Origin: a virus
Virus genome (UHGV): UHGV-0059692
DNA length: 22,155 bases
Direction: 5' to 3' (one strand)
In this document: positions 2,669 to 16,308 of the stretch, one piece after another
Layout: every line of letters starts with the position of its first letter
How positions within the stretch are numbered: the stretch's first letter is position 1
Made by a program: the position numbers and the translations under genes
The notes under the pieces: generated by a model
What the model saw: the letters and a program-made list of their open reading frames with translations, nothing else
Told to the model about the DNA's origin: nothing
Database searches by the model: none

Positions 2669-2865
2669 TGCAATGACTCCATTGTGTTAATTAACGGAAT
2701 AATTCTACCATTTTGTAATCCGCGTTACACTTTGAGCTTATACATAATGTATTTTTTGATCTATATCAACATACGAAATGATAGCTTCTGCGGTGATTTG
2801 CTCATCGGATGGGTGGATCATCACGAACAACAAATGACAGTAAAACAAACAGTAAGGTGAATACA

Positions 2866-3126
2866 ATGAAAAAACTAATTGTTGCTTGCATCTTATCGGC
2901 TCTGTCTTTTGGTGCTTTTGCTTCTGTAAATTCGACAGATAAGAGTGATGCTGGCACTGCTCAATATGGTGATACTAGCCTTGATAACCAACGTTCGAGT
3001 TATTTCAATACTGACTCATGGAAAGAAAAACAACTACAAGGTAAAATTATTGACAGTGAATGTAATTTACCTATCCATTTTTCTGGTGTAAATGATGGGT
3101 GTGAAAAAAATAAAAACAATGCATAA
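2866..3126 (+). CDS. Small secreted protein (86 aa precursor) with two cysteines; moron between J and tail fibre
   Basis: ATG at 2866 preceded by AAGGTG (2854-2859); N-terminus MKKLIVACILSALSFGAFA looks like a Sec signal peptide; opposite strand to all neighbours; AT-rich. Confidence 0.6.
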   Translation: MKKLIVACILSALSFGAFASVNSTDKSDAGTAQYGDTSLDNQRSSYFNTDSWKEKQLQGKIIDSECNLPIHFSGVNDGCEKNKNNA

Positions 3127-3154
3127 AAAAACGGGGCTTATGCCCCGTTTTTTT
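3124..3154. terminator. Bidirectional rho-independent terminator shared by the 2866-3126 gene and J
   Basis: Perfect hairpin cggggc-ttat-gccccg (3132-3147) flanked by an A-run (3124-3131) and a T-run (3148-3154); the stop codons of both convergent genes sit in the flanking runs. Confidence 0.7.
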
Positions 3155-6100
3155 ATGCTGTCGTTGATGTGCTAAATGATCCGGTGCCTCTTGCTACTAT
3201 CATTGTTGGAGAATACAACGCGGTACAATATGCGTATCCTTCAGATGATGATGTTTGAGGACAATATATTTTCCCGATAATATCTGATGCTTTTAAATCA
3301 GAAAAAGCGCATTGCACTGTTAATGTGCATCCACCATAAGGTACGTAATATGAAATTGTTTTGTTTTTACCTCCGCAACTAAACGTTACGTTATAAGTGG
3401 ATCTATATTCACCAGACATTAATGAAATAGTCGCCATAAGCATAACTGATTTCGTCAATGCATTATCCGTGCTGTCTTTATATGTGATGGTTGCGCTATA
3501 ACTTCCGTTATGCCCAAGTACTCGATCTGGACCAACCCCCATGTTAGCAACGTCACCGATAAATGACTTTGCCTCTACTGTACCTTTAAACTTCCCGCTT
3601 GTGGCCTGAATCTCACCAGTGAATTTACCAGATGTTGCGTACACCGTACCGCGTACAGTGACGTTGTTGAACTCCGCATTGCCGTTTTTATTTAGCATCC
3701 AGCCAGCAGAACCAGCTTTATAGTTGGTTGATTGAATTTGCTGCGCAATCTTCGCGGTAGTGATTGATGCGTCTCTGATCCACGCATCACGGATGTAGCA
3801 AGCACCGTTAGTAACATAGAACGGGGTCTGATAGGAGCCACCTGCCGCAGTCATAAGCACGAAACGGTCAACGAGGAAAATACACTGCGATTGAACGTTA
3901 GTCCCGCTACCAGTAAGGCCGAGCGACATTCCTGTAGCGTATTTCATGCCGTTTTTATCAGTGGCAATCTTAATTGAATATGACGCATCAACGTTACCTT
4001 TGAAGTCAGTCAGTGCTTTTGATGTCGTTTCTATCGCCGTTGTGTTTCCGTTAATAGTTACTTTCAACTGGTCGATTCTGGTTGACAATGCCTCGTCTGC
4101 CGTTGCCATAGCCCGCGACCATTCCGTGATGCTTGAGTTTACATCGTCGAAAGATGCCGATATTTGGACAAATTTTTCAGCACTTGATGCCTCGTGAGTT
4201 GCGAGCGCCGTTGATATATCTGTTATTTTTGCTGAAATGTTTTCATTAATATTGGCTTCAAGTGATGATATAGCCTCCGCGCGGGCCTGGGTTTCGTCCG
4301 CTATTGCTGTGTCGATCCTTGCTATTTCCGCTTTTGTTTTTATCTGGCCTTTCCTGTACTTCGCCTCAATAACAGTGCTCGCCTTGCTTTGCGCTATTGA
4401 GTTGTTGATAAGTGCAAGCGAGGCGTTTTGCAGACTTGCTTTCGCCTGATCTATTTCGTCGTTGTTTTTATCAACCTTATTTTCAACAAGACCAAGCTCC
4501 GCACTGATACCTGATATTGCCTGAGCGCGCGCGCTTGATTCGTCAGCGATAGCTTGATCCAGGCGGCTAACACTGGCATTTGTGTTATTTTCAAGCGTTG
4601 TTAAATCAGCTTTAACCTCTGTTATTGCATCGCTTCTTGCCTGCGTTTCATCTGATATTGCTTTATCGAGACGAGAAACGCTCGCATTAGTTTTGTTTTC
4701 CAGGCTGCTGATACTGGCGTTAACGTTGCTTATAGCCTCTGTTCTCGCCTGTGTTTCTGTTGCTATCGCTTTGTCTACGCGTGCTATTTCACCTTTGGTG
4801 TTTGAGTCCATCGCGCTTATTTCGGCTGTGATGGTTTCCAGTGATTCCGCTGTCGATTTTTTCTCCTCTGCGATAACGTTGTCGATGCGGTCAATCTGTG
4901 CCTTTGTTTCGTTGCGGCCTTTCTTATATTGAGCGGTAAGAGTAACCCGCGTGTTAGTTTGAGCAAGCGAGTTGTTGATCAGAGCAAGCGAAGCGTTTTG
5001 TAGACTTGCTTTTGTCTGTGCCAGTTCGTTATTAACGTTTTCGTTTGATACCTCTAATGAGTCTATTCTTACCTCATGTTTGCCTATTTCGTCGGCGTTT
5101 TCTTCGACTTTTTTATAAAGGGCTTCGGTGTCTTTTTTAAGTGTATCTGTATCAGCTTTAAGGCCATCTGTAGCTGTTTTAAGGTCGGCGGTTGCTGTTT
5201 TAAGGTCGGCGGTTGCGCTTTCTATAATATCAGTGCGATCACCAAGATCCTTAATATCACTTACCATTCCCTTAAATTGTTCTGAATTCATCACGTCTTT
5301 GGTGACGTAATCGCTAATTTCATCAAAATTTTCTGTCGGCTTACCTGATGCTTCCACAAAGTCAGACACGCCAAAAGCGTTACGCGTGCGCACATAAACG
5401 TAATAAGTATGGCCTGTATTCATGCCGCCAAACGTCCACTGATACCCGCGCCCGGTAAACTGCGCAGACGTGGTTATTTTTGCAGGATCCGTAATCTGGT
5501 TTTCCCCTGCATAGTAGAATTCATACGCTGTATCAGTTGTTAGCGTTGTCTTGCTTATCGGGTACACTGTAGCCTGAAATACACCTGGAACCCAGTTAAC
5601 GCCTATTGGCGAGTCGGGCGCACCGATAACAAGATCTACTATGCTTTCTGCACCCTTCATGCCAGTGTCATTTCTTCCGCGAACGCCTAACGAATACGCG
5701 CCAGCGTCGATGCCATAAAAATCATAACTGTATTTCGTTGTTTCGTAGCTTTTAACAACCGCACCATCGGCGTTATATATGCGGATCTCAAAGGTCATGC
5801 GATGCGTTGTTGTCTGTGTTTCCCATGTAGCGCGGCATTGAACCGTCTCTGACGCAATGTTTATGACTTTCAGGTTTTCGATGTTCGGAACACGGAAATG
5901 ATTAAGCGTGTCATTGTTGATTTCAAATATTGCTCCCTCATCAACTACCGCTTGTTTGTTCGGGTCATGTTGCGCTGCTTCGATGGTATACACGCTATTA
6001 TTTTCGGTTTCGGCTACACTGGTGATCCGACACAAAACTGGTTTTGCGGATTCAGTGGATACAGCAAAAACAGTGCCGTTGCGAATCCATGCCGGGGCCG

Positions 6101-7736
6101 CTGCCAGTGTGATTTTGTTCCCGTTAACTCCGGTGATCTGATGTTTTTTAAATTTACCATCGCTATCAAGCAGGCTAATGGTATCGCCAGCGGAGATATA
6201 TTTAGCGTCGACCTTGTCTACAGTTACTACTCTGCCATTGTTCGCAACGATGCGACCACCTAAGCGAGCGCCTGCGCGGTTATTGTCCAGGATCTCGATA
6301 ATATCCCCTGGCGTAAAGTGAATAGCGTCACGGGCCATTTTAAATGTGAATTTTGACGGCTCGCGTTTTGCTGTTTCTATCAGCCATTTGCCAGCGCGGT
6401 GCGCTTGCCCGCGTGAAGTGCACCCGAACGCCTCTAGCGTGGTTTCGTTATAACCATCACGGGCAATTAGATCATCATCTGCTACATACTCTTTTGATTG
6501 CTCCCAGCCGTTTTCAGGGTCAGTCCAGGACACAATCACGGCGTTGTAGCATTCCGCGCGGGAGATACTCGATCGAGTGAACGCCCCGTCAACGACGTTT
6601 GCGTTTGTAATGGTGGCGATCGGGTCTTGTGGTGCATCAATCATCACTGTGAGGCGTTGCCCGTCCCATAACGCGATGCCTCGGAACATCCCGGCGATAT
6701 TGTCCAGTAAGTCGCGGGCGCTCATCTGCTCCGTAATGTAAGCATTAAGCGTCATGCGAGGCTCAAGGCCGCCATAACCATCATCGACCAGCTGATCGCA
6801 GTATTGAGAAAGCGTATATAATGCGCCGTCGTCAACGTCAATATAGCCAGCATGACGGGCAAGGCCGAAACGCTTGTTTTTAACCAGATAGCGGAATATC
6901 CAGGCGGGGTTATTACTGTATGCCTGTTTGAATCCGCCAAGCCATAAACCGGAATAAGTGCGCGTTTCCGGGTTATAGTTATCAGGAACATCAACAATCA
7001 GCCCGCGCAGGTGATAAGTGCGAGTAGGCGTGTCAGTGTACTGATCATGATCAATCACAGCGCCAGCTACAGCGGTGTGAGGATAAGACAAATTATCGTC
7101 GATTATTTCGCTGTAACTACTCCATCTCGTATCATTCCGCAATAGATCGCCTGTGCTATCGGCTGTTACACGGCGAACACGAATATCAAATGGCTTTTCA
7201 TCTGGTGCATTGATAATATGCGCTTCAAGATATTCTCCGCTGATCTTGCCCGGGCCTATAGTTACGTCTTTAACAAGCGTCCATGTAGAAGAAGATGAAG
7301 GCTTGACGTCAATCATCATCATAACCGATGTGTTATGTTGATTGCTTTGCTCGTCAGATTGTACAAGTGAATCGACGCCGATGTTCAGGCGAACGCGCGT
7401 AACGTTAGGATCTGATACCGTCCTGATTATTGGTGTGTCATGTTTAACCTGTGCGTTAACAATAACGGTTGACTCAATGGCGTTAAAACCGTTAATAGGT
7501 GATTGATCTAACGTGCCGTTACGCCACGCCACGCTAACACCCGGGACACTTGTATTGCCGTTCGCGTCTGTAACAGGCGTATCATTAAGCATCACGCTAT
7601 TTAATGGCGCTTTTGTATTTACAGGTCCATAAATCGGACCTTCCGAAATAATATCAAGTACACGATAAAATTGTTTATGGTATAGATTATCGTTAATTAA
7701 AGTCGGTGTTTTTGCTTTACCGCCGCCGCTACTCAT
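3153..7736 (-). CDS. J: Central tail fibre / host specificity protein (lambda J family), enlarged by a coiled-coil insert
   Basis: 1527 aa; N-terminal and central regions share recalled lambda J motifs (ISEGPIYGPV, LRGLIVDVPDNYNPETRTYSG, AFGCTSRGQAHRAGKWLIETAK); AGGAGAA upstream of ATG; repeat-rich helical segment at about 4300-5300. Confidence 0.9.
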   Translation of the reverse strand: MSSGGGKAKTPTLINDNLYHKQFYRVLDIISEGPIYGPVNTKAPLNSVMLNDTPVTDANGNTSVPGVSVAWRNGTLDQSPINGFNAIESTVIVNAQVKHDTPIIRTVSDPNVTRVRLNIGVDSLVQSDEQSNQHNTSVMMMIDVKPSSSSTWTLVKDVTIGPGKISGEYLEAHIINAPDEKPFDIRVRRVTADSTGDLLRNDTRWSSYSEIIDDNLSYPHTAVAGAVIDHDQYTDTPTRTYHLRGLIVDVPDNYNPETRTYSGLWLGGFKQAYSNNPAWIFRYLVKNKRFGLARHAGYIDVDDGALYTLSQYCDQLVDDGYGGLEPRMTLNAYITEQMSARDLLDNIAGMFRGIALWDGQRLTVMIDAPQDPIATITNANVVDGAFTRSSISRAECYNAVIVSWTDPENGWEQSKEYVADDDLIARDGYNETTLEAFGCTSRGQAHRAGKWLIETAKREPSKFTFKMARDAIHFTPGDIIEILDNNRAGARLGGRIVANNGRVVTVDKVDAKYISAGDTISLLDSDGKFKKHQITGVNGNKITLAAAPAWIRNGTVFAVSTESAKPVLCRITSVAETENNSVYTIEAAQHDPNKQAVVDEGAIFEINNDTLNHFRVPNIENLKVINIASETVQCRATWETQTTTHRMTFEIRIYNADGAVVKSYETTKYSYDFYGIDAGAYSLGVRGRNDTGMKGAESIVDLVIGAPDSPIGVNWVPGVFQATVYPISKTTLTTDTAYEFYYAGENQITDPAKITTSAQFTGRGYQWTFGGMNTGHTYYVYVRTRNAFGVSDFVEASGKPTENFDEISDYVTKDVMNSEQFKGMVSDIKDLGDRTDIIESATADLKTATADLKTATDGLKADTDTLKKDTEALYKKVEENADEIGKHEVRIDSLEVSNENVNNELAQTKASLQNASLALINNSLAQTNTRVTLTAQYKKGRNETKAQIDRIDNVIAEEKKSTAESLETITAEISAMDSNTKGEIARVDKAIATETQARTEAISNVNASISSLENKTNASVSRLDKAISDETQARSDAITEVKADLTTLENNTNASVSRLDQAIADESSARAQAISGISAELGLVENKVDKNNDEIDQAKASLQNASLALINNSIAQSKASTVIEAKYRKGQIKTKAEIARIDTAIADETQARAEAISSLEANINENISAKITDISTALATHEASSAEKFVQISASFDDVNSSITEWSRAMATADEALSTRIDQLKVTINGNTTAIETTSKALTDFKGNVDASYSIKIATDKNGMKYATGMSLGLTGSGTNVQSQCIFLVDRFVLMTAAGGSYQTPFYVTNGACYIRDAWIRDASITTAKIAQQIQSTNYKAGSAGWMLNKNGNAEFNNVTVRGTVYATSGKFTGEIQATSGKFKGTVEAKSFIGDVANMGVGPDRVLGHNGSYSATITYKDSTDNALTKSVMLMATISLMSGEYRSTYNVTFSCGGKNKTISYYVPYGGCTLTVQCAFSDLKASDIIGKIYCPQTSSSEGYAYCTALYSPTMIVARGTGSFSTSTTA
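4401..4448. repeat. Copy 1 of a dispersed 48-bp direct repeat inside J
   Basis: gttgttgataagtgcaagcgaggcgttttgcagacttgctttcgcctg; matches 4971-5018 with about 6 mismatches by eye; encodes the repeated motif ASLQNASLALINNS. Confidence 0.6.
4971..5018. repeat. Copy 2 of the dispersed 48-bp direct repeat inside J
   Basis: gttgttgatcagagcaagcgaagcgttttgtagacttgcttttgtctg; about 570 bp from copy 1, in frame. Confidence 0.6.
5173..5214. repeat. Perfect 21-bp tandem direct repeat, two copies, in frame within J
   Basis: gctgttttaaggtcggcggtt occurs at 5173-5193 and again at 5194-5214; encodes ATADLKT ATADLKT on the minus strand. Confidence 0.85.
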
Positions 7737-9662: not shown

Positions 9663-9716
9663 TTTCTCACCTTGTCATTTTGTGATCTGCGTCACGCTAA
9701 ATCATACCAAAATGGA

Positions 9717-9745
9717 TTGATCGTGGTTTTTACAATATGTATATT
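9717..9745 (+). promoter_or_regulatory. Putative sigma70 promoter for the plus-strand cassette
   Basis: TTGATC (9717-9722), 17-bp spacer, TATATT (9740-9745), in the divergent intergenic region between L and the cassette. By eye only. Confidence 0.35.
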
Positions 9746-9791
9746 TTACTCAAACGAAGGGGAAGTTAACAAAATGGCGCGGAGATGCGTT

Positions 9792-9980
9792 ATGACTGAA
9801 AAGCTATGGAAGTTGACGGTATTCATGACAGACGGTAGGGAAAAGGTTATCGCCATGTATGACGACGAGGGGGAAGCATTGGTTGACGCGCTTTTACTTG
9901 CTGAGGATGACCGCCTTTTGGGATACCAGATCGAACCTGTCAAATATGAGGCTAACAAAAATGAAAAAATACAGTCTTGA
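9792..9980 (+). CDS. Small acidic protein (62 aa), cassette gene A
   Basis: ATG 9792 with GGAG 7 nt upstream (alternative ATG at 9774); Asp/Glu-rich; its N-terminal half is paralogous to the N-terminus of gene B. Confidence 0.55.
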   Translation: MTEKLWKLTVFMTDGREKVIAMYDDEGEALVDALLLAEDDRLLGYQIEPVKYEANKNEKIQS

Positions 9981-10308
9981 TGTGTGGTTAAGTGGTAGCA
10001 AGGAGTGTTTCGGATTATTTGATAGCGAAGAAGTAGCCCTGGAAGAAGGCAGGATTCTTGAATGTAGTTTAGGCCATCCAGTGAAATATGCTGCTAATCC
10101 GGTACAGATAGTTGATGAGGTGGAAGATATGAACCCGAAAGATATTAATGTTAACTTCAATGTTAATTTTGCAGACTCTATGGATCAGTCTTGCCCTGGT
10201 GAAATACACGCAAAAGGTTTCCCGGCTGATGATCCTGATGCAAAACGCGAATACGAAAAAGCGGCAAAAGATTTCTGTATCGACAACCTGGGCGCGTTCA
10301 ATAAATAA
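9961..10308 (+). CDS. Acidic protein (115 aa) with four cysteines, cassette gene B
   Basis: ATG 9961 preceded by GAGG; overlaps gene A by 20 nt in another frame; N-terminal module resembles gene A; no family recognised. Confidence 0.6.
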   Translation: MKKYSLDVWLSGSKECFGLFDSEEVALEEGRILECSLGHPVKYAANPVQIVDEVEDMNPKDINVNFNVNFADSMDQSCPGEIHAKGFPADDPDAKREYEKAAKDFCIDNLGAFNK

Positions 10309-10317
10309 GGCGGCAAT

Positions 10318-10566
10318 ATGGCGCGGCGCAATAACGGTGACTATGTGTACACGTTGAAACAGGCCGCCCGCCTTATCGGTTATCATGAGCACGAATTTAT
10401 TGATTTGCTGATTGAGCGCGGGATTTTATACCAGGTCTGCTTAACGCTGTACCCGAAAGCAAAATACCTACAGGAAAAGCTATTCATTATCATGACGGAT
10501 GAAAATCAGGTTAATCATTCATTCGTCACTGATAAGGGCGTTAATTATCTGCGTGATAACCTATAG
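10318..10566 (+). CDS. Small DNA-binding-like protein (82 aa) resembling the ANT/KilAC antirepressor C-terminal domain, cassette gene C
   Basis: YTLKQAARLIGYHEHEFIDLLIERGILYQ followed by YPKAKYLQEKLF and VTDKGVNYL, the pattern I recall for KilA-C/ANT domains; starts 10 nt after gene B. Confidence 0.55.
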   Translation: MARRNNGDYVYTLKQAARLIGYHEHEFIDLLIERGILYQVCLTLYPKAKYLQEKLFIIMTDENQVNHSFVTDKGVNYLRDNL

Positions 10567-10576
10567 GTGACAGATT

Positions 10577-10693
10577 ATGAAAATAGAAGTTTTGGCACTA
10601 ATCGTGATGGGATTTATAGTATTCGGTGTTCATGCTGTAGATCTGGACTGGAAAACGATAGCAGAAAATATAGCGTTAATGGAAATGGAATAA
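10577..10693 (+). CDS. 38-aa hydrophobic peptide, cassette gene D
   Basis: Not in the ORF track (too short). ATG 10577 with AGGTGA 6 nt upstream; MKIEVLALIVMGFIVFGVHAVDLDWKTIAENIALMEME has one hydrophobic helix then an acidic tail; terminator follows directly. Confidence 0.45.
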   Translation: MKIEVLALIVMGFIVFGVHAVDLDWKTIAENIALMEME

Positions 10694-10698
10694 TAATA

Positions 10699-10725
10699 AC
10701 CCCGCTTCGCGCGGGGTCGTTTTTA
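10699..10725. terminator. Intrinsic terminator ending the plus-strand cassette; possibly also active on the minus strand
   Basis: Stem accccgc (10699-10705) / gcggggt (10711-10717), then T-run 10720-10724; the reverse complement is followed by TTATTATTATT. Confidence 0.65.
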
Positions 10726-10908
10726 TACGCCATCAAGTAAGAATAAAACTTCCTTGCCTTCCCTTGATCTGCATCCAACATAACCGTCGCCAACATCATG
10801 AAGATACCAGGTCTCACCATTATCAGCTTTTACAGTAAGGTCGTTTATTTCGTAGTCGTCAAACAATGTAAAAGCTCCAGTGCGGTCCACTACACAAATA
10901 GCATACAT
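10723..10908 (-). CDS. Hypothetical small protein (61 aa) translationally coupled to M
   Basis: ATG 10908 preceded by GGAGGGG 5 nt upstream, directly after the M stop codon; no lambda counterpart at this position. Confidence 0.5.
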   Translation of the reverse strand: MYAICVVDRTGAFTLFDDYEINDLTVKADNGETWYLHDVGDGYVGCRSREGKEVLFLLDGV

Positions 10909-10920
10909 ATTGCCCCTCCA

Positions 10921-11274
10921 TTAATTGACAACTTGTTCAAACGTTGCATTCAGCGTGCATACCGGGCCGTCTTTCGTCATGCTCCATTTTCGGCATACAA
11001 AAAGCCTTTGCACTCCGTCCGTTGATGGCGTCCAGTAAAACGCCTCGACCGCGCAACGTGCTCTTAAAAATGCGTCAACCTGGAGAGCCACGTTTCCGGC
11101 GTCACCATATCCGGCGCTCGTACCTTTAAAGACCAGTGTGTAGCTATCGAGCAAAGGATTGATCCCTTTAACCTGCCTTTGCTCGTAGTTGTCGCCCAGC
11201 TTAATGACAGACACGTTAGGCTCGCTGTTTACGCTATAGCTTCTTTGCGGTTTCCATCGGAATACTTCCGGCAT
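10921..11274 (-). CDS. M: Minor tail protein M (lambda gpM-like)
   Basis: 117 aa; N-terminal FRWKPQ and C-terminal ATFEQVVN match recalled lambda gpM (FRWKVKP, EFEQVVN). Confidence 0.9.
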   Translation of the reverse strand: MPEVFRWKPQRSYSVNSEPNVSVIKLGDNYEQRQVKGINPLLDSYTLVFKGTSAGYGDAGNVALQVDAFLRARCAVEAFYWTPSTDGVQRLFVCRKWSMTKDGPVCTLNATFEQVVN

Positions 11275-11441
11275 AAATCCCCCTACAAGTTACATTTTGT
11301 GTGTATCTTTACGCGCTTATACGCGAAAAATGAGATGTATATCACATGAATTATACCTAGTTTTCAAAATGGCTTCACTTTATGAACTCCATATTGTATA
11401 CAGAAAACAAATGAGAAAGACGTTGCACAAAGGGGGATGTT

Positions 11442-11696
11442 ATGAAACTGGTAGCGATTGACAAAAACCTGAAAGCACAGAAAAACGCACCTGAGCATGT
11501 AATCAAAAAAGCAAAAGATCTTCTGAGCGCGTTTTTAAGAAAGGATGTAGCGCCCAAAAAATTGAAAGACGGATACGGCTACGCCTTCCGCGCCAACCTT
11601 GATTGGCGAGTATACAGCCAGGATCTGAAAGCGTGGGTAATCGTTGAACATCATAAATTTAATGAATTATCTGGCGTGCGCGGTTGCCATAAGTGA
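11442..11696 (+). CDS. Hypothetical lysine-rich protein (84 aa); speculative RelE/ParE-like toxin fold
   Basis: ATG 11442 with AAGGGGGA upstream; opposite strand to flanking H and M; C-terminal pattern YAFRANLDWRVYSQDLKAWVIVEHHK loosely recalls RelE/ParE-family beta-strand motifs. Confidence 0.5.
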   Translation: MKLVAIDKNLKAQKNAPEHVIKKAKDLLSAFLRKDVAPKKLKDGYGYAFRANLDWRVYSQDLKAWVIVEHHKFNELSGVRGCHK

Positions 11697-11704
11697 GGCG
11701 GGAT

Positions 11705-11797
11705 ATGGAGGACGATAAATTCACCTGGCGTGAGATCTGGAACATCTGGCAAGTAATGTTTGCTCGCAGCTACATAGCAAGAAACGGAAGATTGTAA
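11705..11797 (+). CDS. Possible 30-aa Trp-rich mini-ORF
   Basis: Not in the ORF track. ATG 11705 with GAGG 5 nt upstream, overlapping the stop of the 84-aa gene; MEDDKFTWREIWNIWQVMFARSYIARNGRL. May be chance. Confidence 0.2.
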   Translation: MEDDKFTWREIWNIWQVMFARSYIARNGRL

Positions 11798-11815
11798 TTT
11801 GCGGAGGAAAATAAA

Positions 11816-11992
11816 ATGAAAGTCACTGCAAATAAAAGCAACGTCAAACGCATGGCCTGGATCGTAAAATGGATGGACACGAAAGGCGATACATACACAG
11901 AACCGTTTTTTAGATATACTGACGCAGTGTTCGCTAAAAGCGTAAGAGGCTGGAAAATTGAAAGAGGATATACAAGTTTTGAGAATGAATAA
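11816..11992 (+). CDS. Hypothetical small protein (58 aa)
   Basis: Not in the ORF track. ATG 11816 with GGAGGA 8 nt upstream; followed immediately by a terminator hairpin; MKVTANKSNVKRMAWIVKWMDTKGDTYTEPFFRYTDAVFAKSVRGWKIERGYTSFENE. Confidence 0.45.
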   Translation: MKVTANKSNVKRMAWIVKWMDTKGDTYTEPFFRYTDAVFAKSVRGWKIERGYTSFENE

Positions 11993-11997
11993 AAGAT

Positions 11998-12031
11998 AAC
12001 CCCGGCATTGTTCCGGGGTTTTGTTTATTTG
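11998..12031. terminator. Intrinsic terminator for the plus-strand small ORFs, overlapping the tape-measure stop codon
   Basis: Stem aaccccgg (11998-12005) / ccggggtt (12013-12020), loop cattgtt, then ttttgtttattt on the plus strand; a weaker U-tract on the minus strand. Confidence 0.6.
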
Positions 12032-14367
12032 CGGCGCGGTTGCAACATTCCGCCAGGTCTTTGAGATTCCCTTGTTATCATTTTCATGGCTACACGTTCC
12101 ATTGTTAATTCAAGTCTGCGGCTGTCTTCGTCGCTGAATCCGTTCGTGGTCTGAATGCTGATACTGACAGGCATACTAATACCGCCACCGCCGCCAATAT
12201 CACGGCCCGGAATAACTCTGCCGTTCTCGCCAGGAATCATATATTGATTCCCGTTAGGCGTCTGGAATAGCTCCGTCCTGTTGTTTTCCCCGACACGGTA
12301 CAAGTTGCCACCAATGACGCTACCACCATTAAAGCGCCTGCCACCGAAGATGGATGTTGCCAGAGACATGATCGCAGTGAGTGCCGCAGAGCCAGCCGCC
12401 GCCCAGCTACCGCCAGTTGATGCTGCTGTTGCCGCCGCTGCCGGGGCCGCTGCCGCAGCGATGCTACCCTGAGCGGCTACCGCACCTGCCGTTGTGCTGG
12501 CCTGCGTTGCCTTGCTTTGTGTCTCCATCATGATTTGATCTGCTATCCAGTTGGCGGCTATGTCAGAAAGCCTGTTGCCGATGTTCCCTAGTATATTGCT
12601 CCCTAAGTTAGCAAAAACATCGCTCAATGATTGAGTGCCGTTAAGCAGGCCAACAAGCGCATTGCTCATGCCACCTTTAAGGCCATTAACGCAATCACCG
12701 ATAAGGCCGTTAGTGTCGCTTTGCGCCTGCCACTGCTCCCATTTCAGATCGCGGATCTGCTGCTCATAGGCTAACAATTCCTGTTTCTGTTGTGCTTCTG
12801 TAGCGCCCAGGTCGATAAGCATTTGCTTACGGACGGCCCATTCATTTTGTGCCTGCTGGATGGGGTCAACCTCGCCTTTTAGCTGGTCCATCGGGCTAAC
12901 TATTTGCGACCATTTGTCACGCAGTTCATCTACCGGGATCTGCGCTAATTCTTCTTTCAGTTCCTTGCCGATCCCTTTTTGCGCGGCGCGGTACTCAAGG
13001 AGCGTGATTTTACCCTGGGCAAATGCAGCATCAATGGCCTTGCCGTTCTCCAACGCTTTGCGCATGGCGGCGGCGTCTTTGTTGTACTGATCAGAAACGC
13101 TTATACCTTTGTCACCAAGCCGATCAGCTTCCGATTTCTTCTCTTTTTTCTGTTTTTTCGGCTTGTCTACTGGCTTGTCGAATCCGGTAATCGCTCCGTC
13201 ATTGGCAGCATTCTGTTCATTTTTCCTTGCTTCTTCTGTAGCCTGGATTGCTGCGGTCAGATCATCCTGTAGTTGCATGACCTTGCCAACGGTCTTCCCG
13301 TATTTCTTCTCGTAGTTGCTGTTATATTCGTCGGTTTGCTCTCCTACTACCTCCTTCACCCATTTATAGGCGTCCATTAGTGCCTTGATTGGCGTCACCA
13401 TTGCGATGATCTTCTCGGCTACCTCGCCAGCCTTGATTCTGACATCTTCAAACATGTCGATGAATTCGCCACCAGCCGTCTTCAGGGTGTTAAAGCAGGT
13501 TTTAGCGAAATCAGTGCCTTCACCTAAATCCTTAACAGCTTTCGTTACAAAATCGATACCAGCAACAACCGTATCGGATACACCGAAAAGATCATCCAAT
13601 TGCTCAACAAGTCCCATAACCTCGACTTTAAGCTCATTCAGGGCCATGCCGGATGTGCGCGGCAACTGCGCAAACTTCTCGTTTGTTTCCTGCGTAGCCG
13701 CCTGGATTGCGTTAACCATCCTTTCTGCCGTGATCTTACCGTCCAGCATTTCGGCGCGGAATTGGCCCATTGATAACCCCATCTGGCGTGCCATTGTCTG
13801 TACGATGGTCGGGGTGTTTTCTAACAGGCTGTTGAATTCTTCAGCGCGCAACACGCCACCGTCGATAGACTGACGGAATTGACGCATTGAGTTTGACATC
13901 TGCTCCGCTGACGCGCCGCCCAACGCCCCCATTTTCTGAATCGTACCTACCAGGTTAAGCAATTGCCCTTCCGTAGCGGAGGTGTTTTTTAGTGAGATAG
14001 CCAGGCCTTGCCATAATTCGCCAGTATCTTTCAGGCTCTGCCCCGTCTCCCTGGATATTTCTTTCAGACCATCAAAAACCCGCCCGGCAGATTCCGCGTC
14101 GCCTGTAAGCATTTTGATTTTGACGCGTAGCATTTTGGCCTGCTCTGCCATTTCCATAAACTGTCTAACGGCCTCGGCAGCAATTAGCAGATGGATAACC
14201 CTGGTCAGTGCTTTGATTGATGTTTTCAGTGTGTTTACCTGGCGATCGGCCTGTTTAGCACCGCGCTCTATACGGTCAAAGGCCTGGTCTGCCTGTCGTT
14301 GTGCTACAAGAAGTTGTCCTGTTTTTGCGTCAACTTCGTAATAAATTGTGCCTACACTGGTAGCCAT
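12025..14367 (-). CDS. H: Tail tape measure protein
   Basis: 780 aa, largely helical, with a Gly/Ala-rich hydrophobic C-terminal region; sits between the chaperone position and M; GAGGT upstream. Confidence 0.9.
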   Translation of the reverse strand: MATSVGTIYYEVDAKTGQLLVAQRQADQAFDRIERGAKQADRQVNTLKTSIKALTRVIHLLIAAEAVRQFMEMAEQAKMLRVKIKMLTGDAESAGRVFDGLKEISRETGQSLKDTGELWQGLAISLKNTSATEGQLLNLVGTIQKMGALGGASAEQMSNSMRQFRQSIDGGVLRAEEFNSLLENTPTIVQTMARQMGLSMGQFRAEMLDGKITAERMVNAIQAATQETNEKFAQLPRTSGMALNELKVEVMGLVEQLDDLFGVSDTVVAGIDFVTKAVKDLGEGTDFAKTCFNTLKTAGGEFIDMFEDVRIKAGEVAEKIIAMVTPIKALMDAYKWVKEVVGEQTDEYNSNYEKKYGKTVGKVMQLQDDLTAAIQATEEARKNEQNAANDGAITGFDKPVDKPKKQKKEKKSEADRLGDKGISVSDQYNKDAAAMRKALENGKAIDAAFAQGKITLLEYRAAQKGIGKELKEELAQIPVDELRDKWSQIVSPMDQLKGEVDPIQQAQNEWAVRKQMLIDLGATEAQQKQELLAYEQQIRDLKWEQWQAQSDTNGLIGDCVNGLKGGMSNALVGLLNGTQSLSDVFANLGSNILGNIGNRLSDIAANWIADQIMMETQSKATQASTTAGAVAAQGSIAAAAAPAAAATAASTGGSWAAAGSAALTAIMSLATSIFGGRRFNGGSVIGGNLYRVGENNRTELFQTPNGNQYMIPGENGRVIPGRDIGGGGGISMPVSISIQTTNGFSDEDSRRLELTMERVAMKMITRESQRPGGMLQPRRK

Positions 14368-14518
14368 GATTTAACCTCATGCAAAATGTGATCTATGTAT
14401 CTATTTTATACAAAATGTCTTTATTTTAACGATACCGTTTTGTATAGATGATGTAGAGAAAGATAGAAGAGATGCAGGAAGGCCGGATGTCCCGGAGGAA
14501 GTGAAAGAGGATAAGAAA

Positions 14519-14602
14519 ATGAGAAACGTAAACTACCGCCCCAACGAATATGAACGCTATGCGAACCTTATCGAAGAAATGTTAAAAACACTTAAAAAAT
14601 AA
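14519..14602 (+). CDS. Possible 27-aa mini-ORF upstream of the secreted-protein gene
   Basis: Not in the ORF track. ATG 14519 with AGAGGA 7 nt upstream; MRNVNYRPNEYERYANLIEEMLKTLKK; AT-rich leader region. Could be chance. Confidence 0.25.
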   Translation: MRNVNYRPNEYERYANLIEEMLKTLKK

Positions 14603-14669
14603 ACAATATGCGTGTATAACTAAGTTAAAGGAAGCATTTAGCAAATCAGAATAATTACAGGGGTTGATT

Positions 14670-15083
14670 ATGAAACGGTTAGCAAAAATGGTGCTTGCTG
14701 TGATTGCTGCACTAGCATTTAACGCTAACGCTAACGAGGCCATAAACATTAACTGTGAAGAAGTGGCAAACCATGTAGCCGCATATCACGACATGATCAA
14801 AAAAGAACCAGCCGCACCCACAATTCTTTTTAAGGCAATTGATAAAAATTTTGAAGGTAAACCAGTTTATGCTCGTTGGTTTAATTATGGCCTTGTAAAC
14901 GAGGCTGCTGTAGGCGTAGTCTTTGAAAACAACAGCGAAATAAAAAACAGGATAGCTAACGAGTGTAAAGCAAATAAAGTTGCTTTCGCTGAAAGAATTT
15001 TTAATGAAGGCGGCGCTGGTGCAAAAAATCACGCAATTGTCGATTTAGGTAACGGTTTTATTGATATTGTTAGAATCAAATAA
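14670..15083 (+). CDS. Secreted or periplasmic protein (137-aa precursor) with Sec-type signal peptide; moron between chaperone and tape measure
   Basis: ATG 14670 (the track starts at a TTG at 14664); MKRLAKMVLAVIAALAFNANA signal-like N-terminus; two cysteines in the mature part; opposite strand to the tail operon. Confidence 0.65.
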   Translation: MKRLAKMVLAVIAALAFNANANEAININCEEVANHVAAYHDMIKKEPAAPTILFKAIDKNFEGKPVYARWFNYGLVNEAAVGVVFENNSEIKNRIANECKANKVAFAERIFNEGGAGAKNHAIVDLGNGFIDIVRIK

Positions 15084-15098
15084 GACAAACGCCCGGAT

Positions 15099-15776
15099 CT
15101 ACCGGACTTTTTCTTGCTTGCGATTTTCCATTCTTTTTAGCGCCTTTTTAGCGGCCTCCATTTGCTCGTCATAAGCACGTTTATTTATGTGAACATTTGG
15201 TCTACTTCTTTCATTTCTTTCGTCTGGCGGCGTTTTAGCGCGCACTGCGGCCCTGTATCCGGTCATTGTCATATTCCATGCTTCTGATTCTGACAATCCC
15301 AGGTGAGCAACGGCAGAATAAACAAACTCAAGTACGTCAAATGTCGGCTTGTACTCGCCTTCCTGGATCGCGCCCGTGTCTTCTTCCGGCCCGTCACCAA
15401 TTAAACCGTGGTACATGCAATGTTGCGCCAGCGTGATAACATCACTTGTAGGCATCAGTCCGGGTTTTAGTCTCAATTTACCAGAAGGAGTAAACCTACA
15501 TTTGCCCAATAACGGGCCTGTTTCGTCGTCTGAGCAACATTTCAGGATGCGCATTGACGTTTGCACTATCTCACCATAACACCGTGCCATAATGCGATTG
15601 CGGAGGTCTGGATCTGTAGGTAATCGTGAAGGGTATTTGCTGCCGTGGATAAGTGCGAAATATTCGACAAGCTCACTATCGTTGCCGATTTTAGCCATCG
15701 CAGCAAAGCAAGGATTAAACTCATAGCGCTTACCGTTCACCACAGCCGCAAATTGCCCTGTACGAACATGGATCAT
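15099..15776 (-). CDS. Putative tail assembly chaperone, assigned by position
   Basis: 225 aa from the first ATG (15776), with AAGGTG upstream overlapping the track's GTG start; lies between major tail protein and tape measure; strongly basic C-terminal tail. Confidence 0.45.
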   Translation of the reverse strand: MIHVRTGQFAAVVNGKRYEFNPCFAAMAKIGNDSELVEYFALIHGSKYPSRLPTDPDLRNRIMARCYGEIVQTSMRILKCCSDDETGPLLGKCRFTPSGKLRLKPGLMPTSDVITLAQHCMYHGLIGDGPEEDTGAIQEGEYKPTFDVLEFVYSAVAHLGLSESEAWNMTMTGYRAAVRAKTPPDERNERSRPNVHINKRAYDEQMEAAKKALKRMENRKQEKVR

Positions 15777-15790
15777 AGTATTCACCTTAA

Positions 15791-15831: not shown

Positions 15832-16308
15832 TTATGCTGGCGGAACGTCGCCTACCGTTACCTTGCCAGCGCTTTCGCACTCAATAGACCAGGTGGAAAC
15901 ATCATCATGCGGATCTTCTTCTTTAAAGGAAGTGCAAAGGAATGGGCCTTCAGTTACGTCTACAGGAGAAACGATCTTCAGCCATACATAAGGTTGTGAT
16001 CCGGTGGTTTCACCTGGCGTAATTACGTGGCGTTTCAGCGCTTTCTGATTATGGATTTCTTCAGTGCGGGACACACCGTCGCCGGAGAAAGAAACGGATT
16101 TGTAAGTAACCATTGATTCTTTCGTGTAATCGGCTGATTTATCGGCGGTGGCGTCAGCGGTTTCCCATTCAACGGAAAGTGTTTTACCACGCATCATGCC
16201 TAACGCTTTGTACGCTACAGCTTCCGGCTTCGCATTTGGACAAGCGATAGCGAAGAATACAGCAACGTCACGGCCTGTAAACGTGCCTTTTTCGCAAGTC
16301 TGAGACAT
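15832..16308 (-). CDS. Major tail (tube) protein
   Basis: 158 aa; strong RBS AAGAGGT; followed by a terminator hairpin; position immediately upstream of chaperone and tape measure. Confidence 0.65.
   Translation of the reverse strand: MSQTCEKGTFTGRDVAVFFAIACPNAKPEAVAYKALGMMRGKTLSVEWETADATADKSADYTKESMVTYKSVSFSGDGVSRTEEIHNQKALKRHVITPGETTGSQPYVWLKIVSPVDVTEGPFLCTSFKEEDPHDDVSTWSIECESAGKVTVGDVPPA

Follow-up and report, generated by a model that had tools for sequence, protein, structure and literature searches.

The stretch of viral DNA analyzed here, UHGV virus genome UHGV-0059692 (22,155 nucleotides (nt); hereafter the window), comes from an mEp021-like (mEpimmI) temperate siphophage of Escherichia coli. 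Its relatives include mEp021, mEp515, mEp044, mEp554 and mEp013, and over the studied region it is 87% identical to Escherichia phage MagusPhagus. The mEpimmI phages, found in human-gut E. coli, are temperate siphophages, non-lambdoid and Nus-dependent, with N-like and Q-like antitermination (PMC11893012). Between the tape-measure protein (TMP) gene and a DUF6246 gene in the tail operon of this phage lies a cassette on the opposite strand, composed of a promoter-like core, a mini open reading frame (ORF), the gene for a predicted exported protein (the focal protein) and a terminator-like hairpin. An earlier note, made from the sequence letters, had described a 137-residue protein with a Sec-type signal peptide and two cysteines at this place, antisense inside the tail operon and preceded by an AT-rich leader of about 270 bp, and each of these features is borne out. 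The locus is laid out as follows.

12025-14367, - strand: TMP gene (780 aa; PF20155 TMP_3, E 9e-50), the left boundary of the slot
14387-14448, + strand: conserved promoter-like core by the TMP start codon, containing TGTGAT
14407-14415 and 14438-14446: arms TATACAAAA and TTTTGTATA of an inverted repeat, exact in the window, with 22 nt between them
14420-14425 and 14443-14448, + strand: -35-like TTTATT and -10-like TATAGA, with a 17-nt spacer
14506-14511, + strand: Shine-Dalgarno sequence AGAGGA, 7 nt before the ATG of the mini-ORF
14519-14602, + strand: mini-ORF for the 27-residue hydrophilic peptide MRNVNYRPNEYERYANLIEEMLKTLKK
14659-14663, + strand: Shine-Dalgarno sequence AGGGG, 6 nt before the focal ATG
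14670-15083, + strand: main ORF, 137 aa, from ATG 14670 to the stop at 15083, antisense between the TMP and DUF6246 genes
14670-14732, + strand: predicted signal-peptide coding part, MKRLAKMVLAVIAALAFNANA, with n-, h- and c-regions and agreement with the -3/-1 rule
14733-15083, + strand: mature domain, 116 aa plus stop (12.8 kDa, pI 6.3)
14754-14756 and 14964-14966, + strand: codons for Cys29 and Cys99 of the mature domain
15091-15115, + strand: terminator-like hairpin GCCCGG-ATCTA-CCGGAC, then TTTTTCTT, from a terminator scan
15099-15785, - strand: DUF6246 gene (228 aa; PF19759, E 3.5e-54; phrog_791), the right boundary of the slot
15832-16308: tail-tube gene (PF06199), which precedes the DUF6246 gene

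The focal gene and its product

The base composition of the locus is deviant, with a GC content of 34-39% across 14300-15100 against 45-55% in the flanks. The leader itself, which measures 302 nt between the TMP start and the focal ATG (about 270 nt if counted from 14400), has 34-38% against about 50% in the flanking sequence, and no Rfam match was found within 14200-15250. The product of the DUF6246 gene is a probable tail assembly chaperone on the basis of its position and a weak Phage_TAC_6 match (E 0.2); that its stop codon abuts the TMP start in distant phages supports such a chaperone-like role.

We set the focal start at ATG 14670, rather than at the TTG 14664 of the mechanical ORF list, because all homologues start with MKRL. 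Examination by hand covered nineteen loci, one in the window, six in phages and twelve in E. coli chromosomes, and 46 close relatives from IMG/VR were processed by script, giving 65 in total. The focal family, which we term class A, occupies six of the 19 (the window counted) and 15 of the 46, and its ORF is uninterrupted in every class-A locus retrieved; of the contigs encoding P0001, 24 were read, all with the ORF intact and the context identical. Comparison of five class-A sequences from two clades with about 73% protein identity, by the Nei-Gojobori method, gave a ratio of nonsynonymous to synonymous substitution (dN/dS) of 0.07-0.23, with synonymous sites near saturation. Judged from their substitution patterns, the focal ORF and the mini-ORF are both genuine genes under purifying selection.

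On the - strand, a 106-residue ORF (14712-15032) lies wholly within the focal gene. It is probably a shadow ORF, because the selection pattern matches the + frame. The converse, in which the focal ORF is the shadow of this frame or is decaying and non-functional, could appeal to the opposite-strand ORF and to the promoter-like hexamers and terminator of the window, which are weaker than those of its relatives. Against this stand the low dN/dS across clades with saturated synonymous change, the intact ORF in all class-A loci retrieved and a confidently predicted fold. The selection pattern effectively refutes a lack of function, and we consider such a reading scarcely conceivable.

The focal protein is predicted to be a substrate of signal peptidase I, cleaved after A21. 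By rule-based analysis its N terminus reads MKRLAK/MVLAVIAALAF/NANA, with NE following the cut, corresponding to a positively charged n-region, an h-region from M7 to F17 and the c-region NANA; the hydrophobic core is 11 residues long with a Kyte-Doolittle peak of 2.95, and Ala occupies positions -3 and -1. Hydropathy of the whole sequence revealed no second hydrophobic segment. The lipobox pattern [LVI][ASTVI][GAS]C was not found at the end of the signal peptide, and the first Cys is residue 29, in the context ININC, eight residues past the predicted cleavage site. The DNA at the signal-peptidase site is a hexanucleotide repeat, (AACGCT)n at 14721-14736, which encodes NANA. Length variants occur as NANA, NANANA and NANANANA; P0003 has one extra unit and P0004 two, in frame and at the predicted cleavage site.

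The homology searches and structure prediction that the earlier note had proposed yielded a family confined to the phage group and a confident helical model. In an alignment of 15 homologues 66 columns are invariant, and both C29 and C99 are among them. The AlphaFold2 model (predicted local distance difference test score (pLDDT) 85, predicted template modelling score (pTM) 0.83) consists of five helices followed by a C-terminal beta-hairpin, and its confidence is low over the signal peptide only (residues 1-20, pLDDT 58-62). No Pfam family was matched at E <= 0.1, and scans of PHROG and NCBIfam were likewise empty; PADLOC-DB gave no match at E <= 0.1 for the focal protein or for eight alternative cargoes of the slot, and the focal protein has no relative in the PDB or BFVD. 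A word-indexed search of 5.8 billion proteins returned 17 clusters only, all from E. coli or Caudoviricetes, and an exhaustive profile search of 1.84 billion representatives returned the focal family and weak EF-hand-like repeat matches, with nothing else. Across these searches, no homologue appeared in other species, in pathogenicity islands or anywhere outside the mEp021-like phage group.

The EF-hand-like matches reflect a faint likeness of residues 39-75 to the EF-hand repeats of the eukaryotic proteins P0019 and P0020. We rejected membership of that family: the canonical loop is DxDxDGxIxxxE, but position 12 of the loop DKNFEGKPVYAR is R (T or K in homologues) and position 8 is P, nor is membership supported by Pfam or by sequence or fold matches in the PDB. 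The 116 residues of the mature domain are conserved and, as modelled, helical, and they have no detectable relative.

A slot for exchangeable cargo

In all 65 loci the junction between the DUF6246 and TMP genes is filled by an antisense insert, which spans 640-1275 nt in the 46 IMG/VR loci. The picture differs in 12 distant phages whose DUF6246 proteins are 26-41% identical (IMG/VR loci L075, L080, L081, L083, L087-L091 and L094-L096), where the DUF6246 stop and the TMP start are -4 to 99 nt apart, an abutting arrangement that is presumed to be the ancestral state. Because the flanking genes abut in distant phages and are parted by an insert in close ones, the insert is a true moron ('more DNA'). 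The earlier note had assigned it this status, and the assignment holds: besides being extra DNA relative to distant phages, the insert has deviant GC, lies on the opposite strand and comes with a conserved upstream module and its own terminator. The cassette is best explained as a self-contained, horizontally exchangeable moron at a fixed hot-spot between the DUF6246 and TMP genes. Prophage morons at the junction of chaperone and tape-measure genes are already known; what is new here is a protein family without known relatives.

Among the 46 IMG/VR loci, the slot holds the following cargoes.

Class A: the focal family, 15 loci
Class B: Sec protein of 116-119 aa, 5 loci
Class C: Sec protein of 160-165 aa, 1 locus
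Class D: lipoprotein of the VasI/TagO family (PF11319, E 2e-16), 17 loci, 9 of them with class E and 7 with a 106-aa protein
Class E: BamE/OsmE-like lipoprotein of 124 aa, 10 loci
Class F: 100-aa protein with two transmembrane segments, after a 35-aa transmembrane peptide, 9 loci
Other cargoes: odd cases, a few loci

The classes also occur in the combinations A+F, A+E and B+F, and every cargo with a recognisable targeting signal is envelope-directed. PHROG annotation of the alternative cargoes was uninformative. The commonest cargo of the slot is the VasI/TagO lipoprotein (L007, L011, L015 and L018 in addition to the 17 IMG/VR loci), often in company with the BamE/OsmE-like lipoprotein. About two thirds of the close relatives hold another cargo than the focal family. 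The earlier note had taken absence from closely related prophages as grounds to doubt the gene; such absence is frequent, but it marks an accessory gene and not an unreal one.

The Sec proteins of classes A, B and C might be taken for one diverged family. We rejected this because hhalign restricts their similarity to residues 1-26/32, that is, to the signal peptide. At locus L008 (strain 127, class B), the DNA encoding the signal peptide is 94% identical to that of class A in mEp021 and 56% identical to that of class B in mEp515, whereas the mature part is 55% like class B and 48% like class A, the latter being the background level. Similarly, the first 25 nucleotides are identical between the class-A locus L016 and class-D loci. 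These patchworks place recombination joints within the signal-peptide coding sequence or where it ends, and the signal peptide, as far as the DNA comparisons indicate, is a shared handle common to unrelated cargoes.

A second shared element is the mini-ORF, which is carried by 14 of the 19 hand-examined and 30 of the 46 IMG/VR loci. Across 13 distinct DNA versions from 14 loci its mean ratio of nonsynonymous to synonymous polymorphism (pN/pS) is 0.12; variable columns number 8, 6 and 20 at the three codon positions, and the single indel, of 3 nt, keeps the frame. The peptide is 27-29 aa long, with the consensus MKNVNYRPNEHERYADFIEEMLKALKNKN. The distance from the mini-ORF stop to the cargo ATG is 13-14 nt in most loci and about 55 nt greater in the window and MagusPhagus. 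Short-leader loci do without the mini-ORF, and there the cargo begins about 45 nt past the -10-like hexamer; L016 is such a locus and carries a class-A protein. The mini-ORF is found ahead of cargo classes A, B, C, D and F. Since it precedes unrelated cargoes and is missing from L016, it is not a cargo-specific leader. Thus the mini-ORF that the earlier note had picked out in the leader is real coding sequence, though its tie to the focal protein does not stand: by its conservation pattern it is an optional, independently conserved small gene. With the peptide as query, tblastn gave matches in six mEpimmI phage records only, and the mini-ORF is unannotated in nearly all RefSeq genomes.

Upstream of these genes, the core reads TGTGAT..CTATTTTATACAAAATG..TTTTGTATA and is invariant in 19 of 19 hand-examined loci, and the inverted repeat is present in all 46 IMG/VR loci. 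The consensus among relatives on the + strand is TT(T/C)ACT-17-TATAA(A/G), of which TTTATT-17-TATAGA in the window is the weakest variant. A paralogue of this upstream module at 11310-11401, containing AAAATGGCTTCACT-17-TATACA, heads a second antisense island (local alignment score 56, whereas none of 500 shuffles exceeded 38), which supports reading the core as a + strand promoter; a search for further copies of the module within the window was convincing only at this second island. A shorter motif, (C)ATTTTGTATA(A/C)A, recurs in either orientation where antisense islands meet - strand structural genes (14407-14446, 2738-2753 on the - strand, and 11389-11401). At 14407-14446 its two copies make up the inverted repeat, which is unchanged across the 65 loci. 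Its extra copies are weak, with 6 matches against 3.0 expected and a blastn-short E of 0.16 for 2738-2753.

At the downstream end, the loop of the terminator-like hairpin holds the DUF6246 stop codon (15099-15101, - strand). The other 18 hand-examined loci have GCCCGG-loop-CCGGGC-T4-6 at the same position, 45 of the 46 IMG/VR loci give a match there, and the depositors of the mEp phage records annotated terminators there. In the window, a G-to-A change in the 3' arm (CCGGAC) weakens the stem, giving a folding energy of -10.1 kcal/mol (z -1.3) compared with -18.0 kcal/mol in MagusPhagus.

Possible roles of the focal protein

From its position and by analogy, the focal protein may be a periplasmic superinfection-exclusion factor that acts after adsorption, a role we put forward tentatively and at somewhat less than even strength. 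We favor it because the cargoes of the slot are envelope-directed and replace one another in near-identical phages, because the family is restricted to one phage group, and because the slot has the position of HK97 gene 15; the precedent of T4 Spackle and the presence of exclusion lipoproteins elsewhere in mEpimmI genomes point the same way. A phage-directed role also agrees better than a general host function with the restriction of the family to this phage group in E. coli. In the mechanism that we envisage, the cassette would be transcribed in the lysogen from its own promoter, with the terminator keeping this transcript from entering the tail genes antisense, and late transcription would read through the hairpin because these phages use Q-like antitermination. 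The protein would be exported, cut after A21 and closed by a C29-C99 disulfide to give a soluble periplasmic protein. Its position and the analogies suggest that its target in the periplasm could then be the tail tip of the incoming phage or the tape-measure channel, before DNA reaches the cytoplasm.

Several observations weigh against this proposal. Cargo class does not go with TMP type: TMP N-termini that are 94-98% identical occur with A, D+E, D+106-aa or B+F, so this linkage gives no support for a TMP-specific target. In the searches described above, homology to a family, a fold or a PADLOC model that would point to any function was not found. A consensus promoter scan found no sigma-70 promoter at the core, because the -10-like hexamer is without T at position 6; it reads TATAGA here and TATAAA in most relatives, and that T is usually essential. 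The -35/-10 elements and the terminator of the window are the weakest versions among the loci seen. The inverted repeat could instead serve the - strand or bind a regulator: read on the - strand, its left arm is TAAAAT, located 35 nt upstream of the TMP ATG, an arrangement that would allow for a divergent promoter pair or a regulator site. As the element is promoter-like, expression of the cassette in the lysogen is assumed.

The cargo set itself suggests another role, namely that of a periplasmic immunity or protection factor against attack on the envelope that does not come from phages (for example type VI effectors that act on peptidoglycan or membranes, colicins and lysozymes, or stress on the envelope). 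In that case the slot would collect orphan envelope-protection genes that raise the fitness of the lysogen when it competes. A small predicted periplasmic protein with two invariant cysteines in a polymorphic cargo set would suit this, as would the company it keeps: the commonest alternative cargo, VasI/TagO, is otherwise found in type VI secretion clusters, and another cargo is BamE/OsmE-like. However, sequence and fold searches gave no likeness to any immunity or inhibitor protein already known, whether by family or by fold, and the focal family is found in the phage slot alone, never beside effectors. VasI/TagO, an accessory of type VI secretion clusters, is for its part listed with unknown function (PMC13584744). 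We regard this role as unlikely.

A different suggestion, raised by the earlier note, is a lysogenic-conversion factor acting on the animal host or cell surface through serum resistance, adhesion or receptor masking, on the model of lambda bor and lom. The protein is, by its sequence, an exported prophage moron from gut E. coli, and mEp021 does change the phenotype of its host through another small protein, Ipe (PMC11893012, PMC6379469). Ipe, at 72-83 aa, is nevertheless a different protein, and on the same grounds we rejected its identity with the 137-aa focal protein. Without a lipobox, beta-barrel or anchor, the focal protein is predicted to be soluble and periplasmic and not surface-exposed. 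Homologues are lacking in pathogenicity islands and other species, and of 5426 complete E. coli genomes 5 contain the full focal cassette (35 contain the leader). Its hosts there are a mixture of commensal, animal, food and Shiga toxin-producing E. coli isolates, from cockatoo, cattle, deer, lettuce and human, with no pathotype pattern. Nothing links the protein to serum resistance or receptor masking, as it has no lipobox, outer-membrane features or homologue outside the phage group, and conversion of this kind is decidedly improbable.

The upstream module could also be turned to a reading in which the protein serves the lytic cycle of the phage itself. Here TTTTGTATA would be a late-type element, present in both orientations, of a late phage-specific promoter, and the product would act in the periplasm in lysis timing, on the envelope or in exclusion at the time of infection. 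That the conserved motif is poor as a sigma-70 -10 element and stands in both orientations at boundaries of islands and structural genes is in keeping with this, and T4 Spackle is an exclusion protein expressed during infection. However, some two thirds of sister phages have unrelated cargoes in place of the focal protein, which is thus dispensable for growth; the antisense position in a strongly transcribed late operon would be expected to hamper late expression; and the extra matches to the motif are statistically weak. The mEp021 homologue, mEp021_63 (gp63), is annotated only as 'hypothetical' whereas neighbors detected by virion mass spectrometry are labelled as virion structural proteins. 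The mEpimmI paper and its supplements do not mention gp63 (PMC11893012). A lytic role is, in our estimate, slightly more improbable again than host conversion.

Returning to the exclusion factor, it can be set within a wider proposal that we consider rather doubtful as a whole: the slot would be an 'export-ready' docking platform, with a constant 5' handle (promoter core, optional peptide gene and signal peptide) and a terminator as 3' handle, in which unrelated mature domains recombine at or within the signal-peptide sequence. The focal protein would be a periplasmic effector of a previously unseen fold, directed against phages (or against competitors), and the peptide of 27-29 aa would be a new conserved micro-protein with its own role. 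The slot shows temperate phages shuffling envelope-directed cargo while expression and export signals stay constant, and for an exclusion factor it would offer a natural panel of at least six cargo classes in near-identical phages, three of which are available in cultured mEp phages. The mini-ORF is a conserved phage micro-protein overlooked by standard annotation. Should the focal protein have no phenotype, it would be one further uncharacterised moron.

Further antisense islands accompany the cassette in the window. The second island (11300-12020, + strand) is bounded by a minor tail gene (10921-11274, PF05939) and by the end of the TMP gene; it opens with the paralogue of the promoter module and ends in a strong GC hairpin and T-run at about 11992-12020. 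Its ORFs encode a protein with a ParE-like toxin domain (11442-11696; PF24732, E 4.5e-7) and products of 34 aa (11693-11797) and 58 aa (11816-11992), and it may be a moron of toxin-antitoxin type. A third island within the tail genes (9672-10740, + strand) has a 149-aa ORF (9859-10308) and an 82-aa ORF with a KilAC domain (10318-10566; PF03374, E 6.5e-7). An antisense ORF also lies in 2684-3150 (+ strand), between a J-like tail fibre gene (3153-7736) and the next fibre gene (881-2668). Read from the internal ATG 2863, it begins MKKLIVACILSALSFGAFA/SVN.. and is 87 aa long (phrog_2243, E 2e-4), and from this N terminus it looks like a second exported protein, located where Cor/Lpp-type exclusion genes of the mEpimmI group would be expected.

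Comparison with known exclusion and conversion proteins

Lambda bor and lom resemble the focal gene in being exported-protein morons in or near the tail genes of temperate coliphages, with expression from the prophage (PMC3594210), which is assumed for the focal gene. They differ in that both are outer-membrane proteins that act on the animal host, Bor a lipoprotein and Lom a beta-barrel, and the focal protein has neither feature.

The closest positional counterpart is HK97 gene 15, the first moron to be described, which lies between the tail assembly chaperone and tape-measure genes and encodes an envelope protein, expressed from the prophage, that prevents injection of the genome in a way that depends on the tail (PMC3594210). 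The two share the same genomic position, deviant GC and a small envelope product, the envelope location being a prediction in the case of the focal protein; gene 15 is an autonomous transcription unit, as the cassette would be if its promoter-like core is active. However, gp15 is an inner-membrane protein related to YebO, whereas the focal protein has a predicted cleavable signal and no membrane segment in its mature part, and no YebO homology was found for it in Pfam at E <= 0.1. HK97 gene 15 also lies on the strand of the tail genes, unlike the antisense cassette here.

T4 Spackle (gp61.3) is a small periplasmic helical bundle with one disulfide that excludes superinfecting phage through its binding to the tail-tip lysozyme gp5 (PMC7677548). 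Like it, the focal protein would be a small phage-encoded periplasmic protein with a cleaved signal, as predicted from its sequence; structural similarity to Spackle (PDB 6X6O) was not detected.

Within the mEpimmI group itself, phage exclusion has been demonstrated experimentally for the Lpp lipoproteins mEp021 gp81 and mEp010 gp116 (PMC11893012). These, and receptor blockers of the Cor/Llp type, have in common with the focal protein the phage group, predicted targeting to the envelope, a place within the structural cluster and polymorphism between sister phages. The Lpp proteins are lipobox lipoproteins from another locus, whereas the focal protein is without a lipobox Cys; identity of the focal protein with an mEpimmI Lpp was accordingly rejected, since gp81 and gp116 are encoded elsewhere and are lipoproteins. 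P1 Sim is prophage-encoded, has a processed signal peptide and blocks infection after adsorption, and at about 25 kDa it is larger than the focal protein. If the focal protein is indeed such a factor, the few proteins known to block phage DNA entry after adsorption would be joined by a soluble periplasmic one with a new fold.

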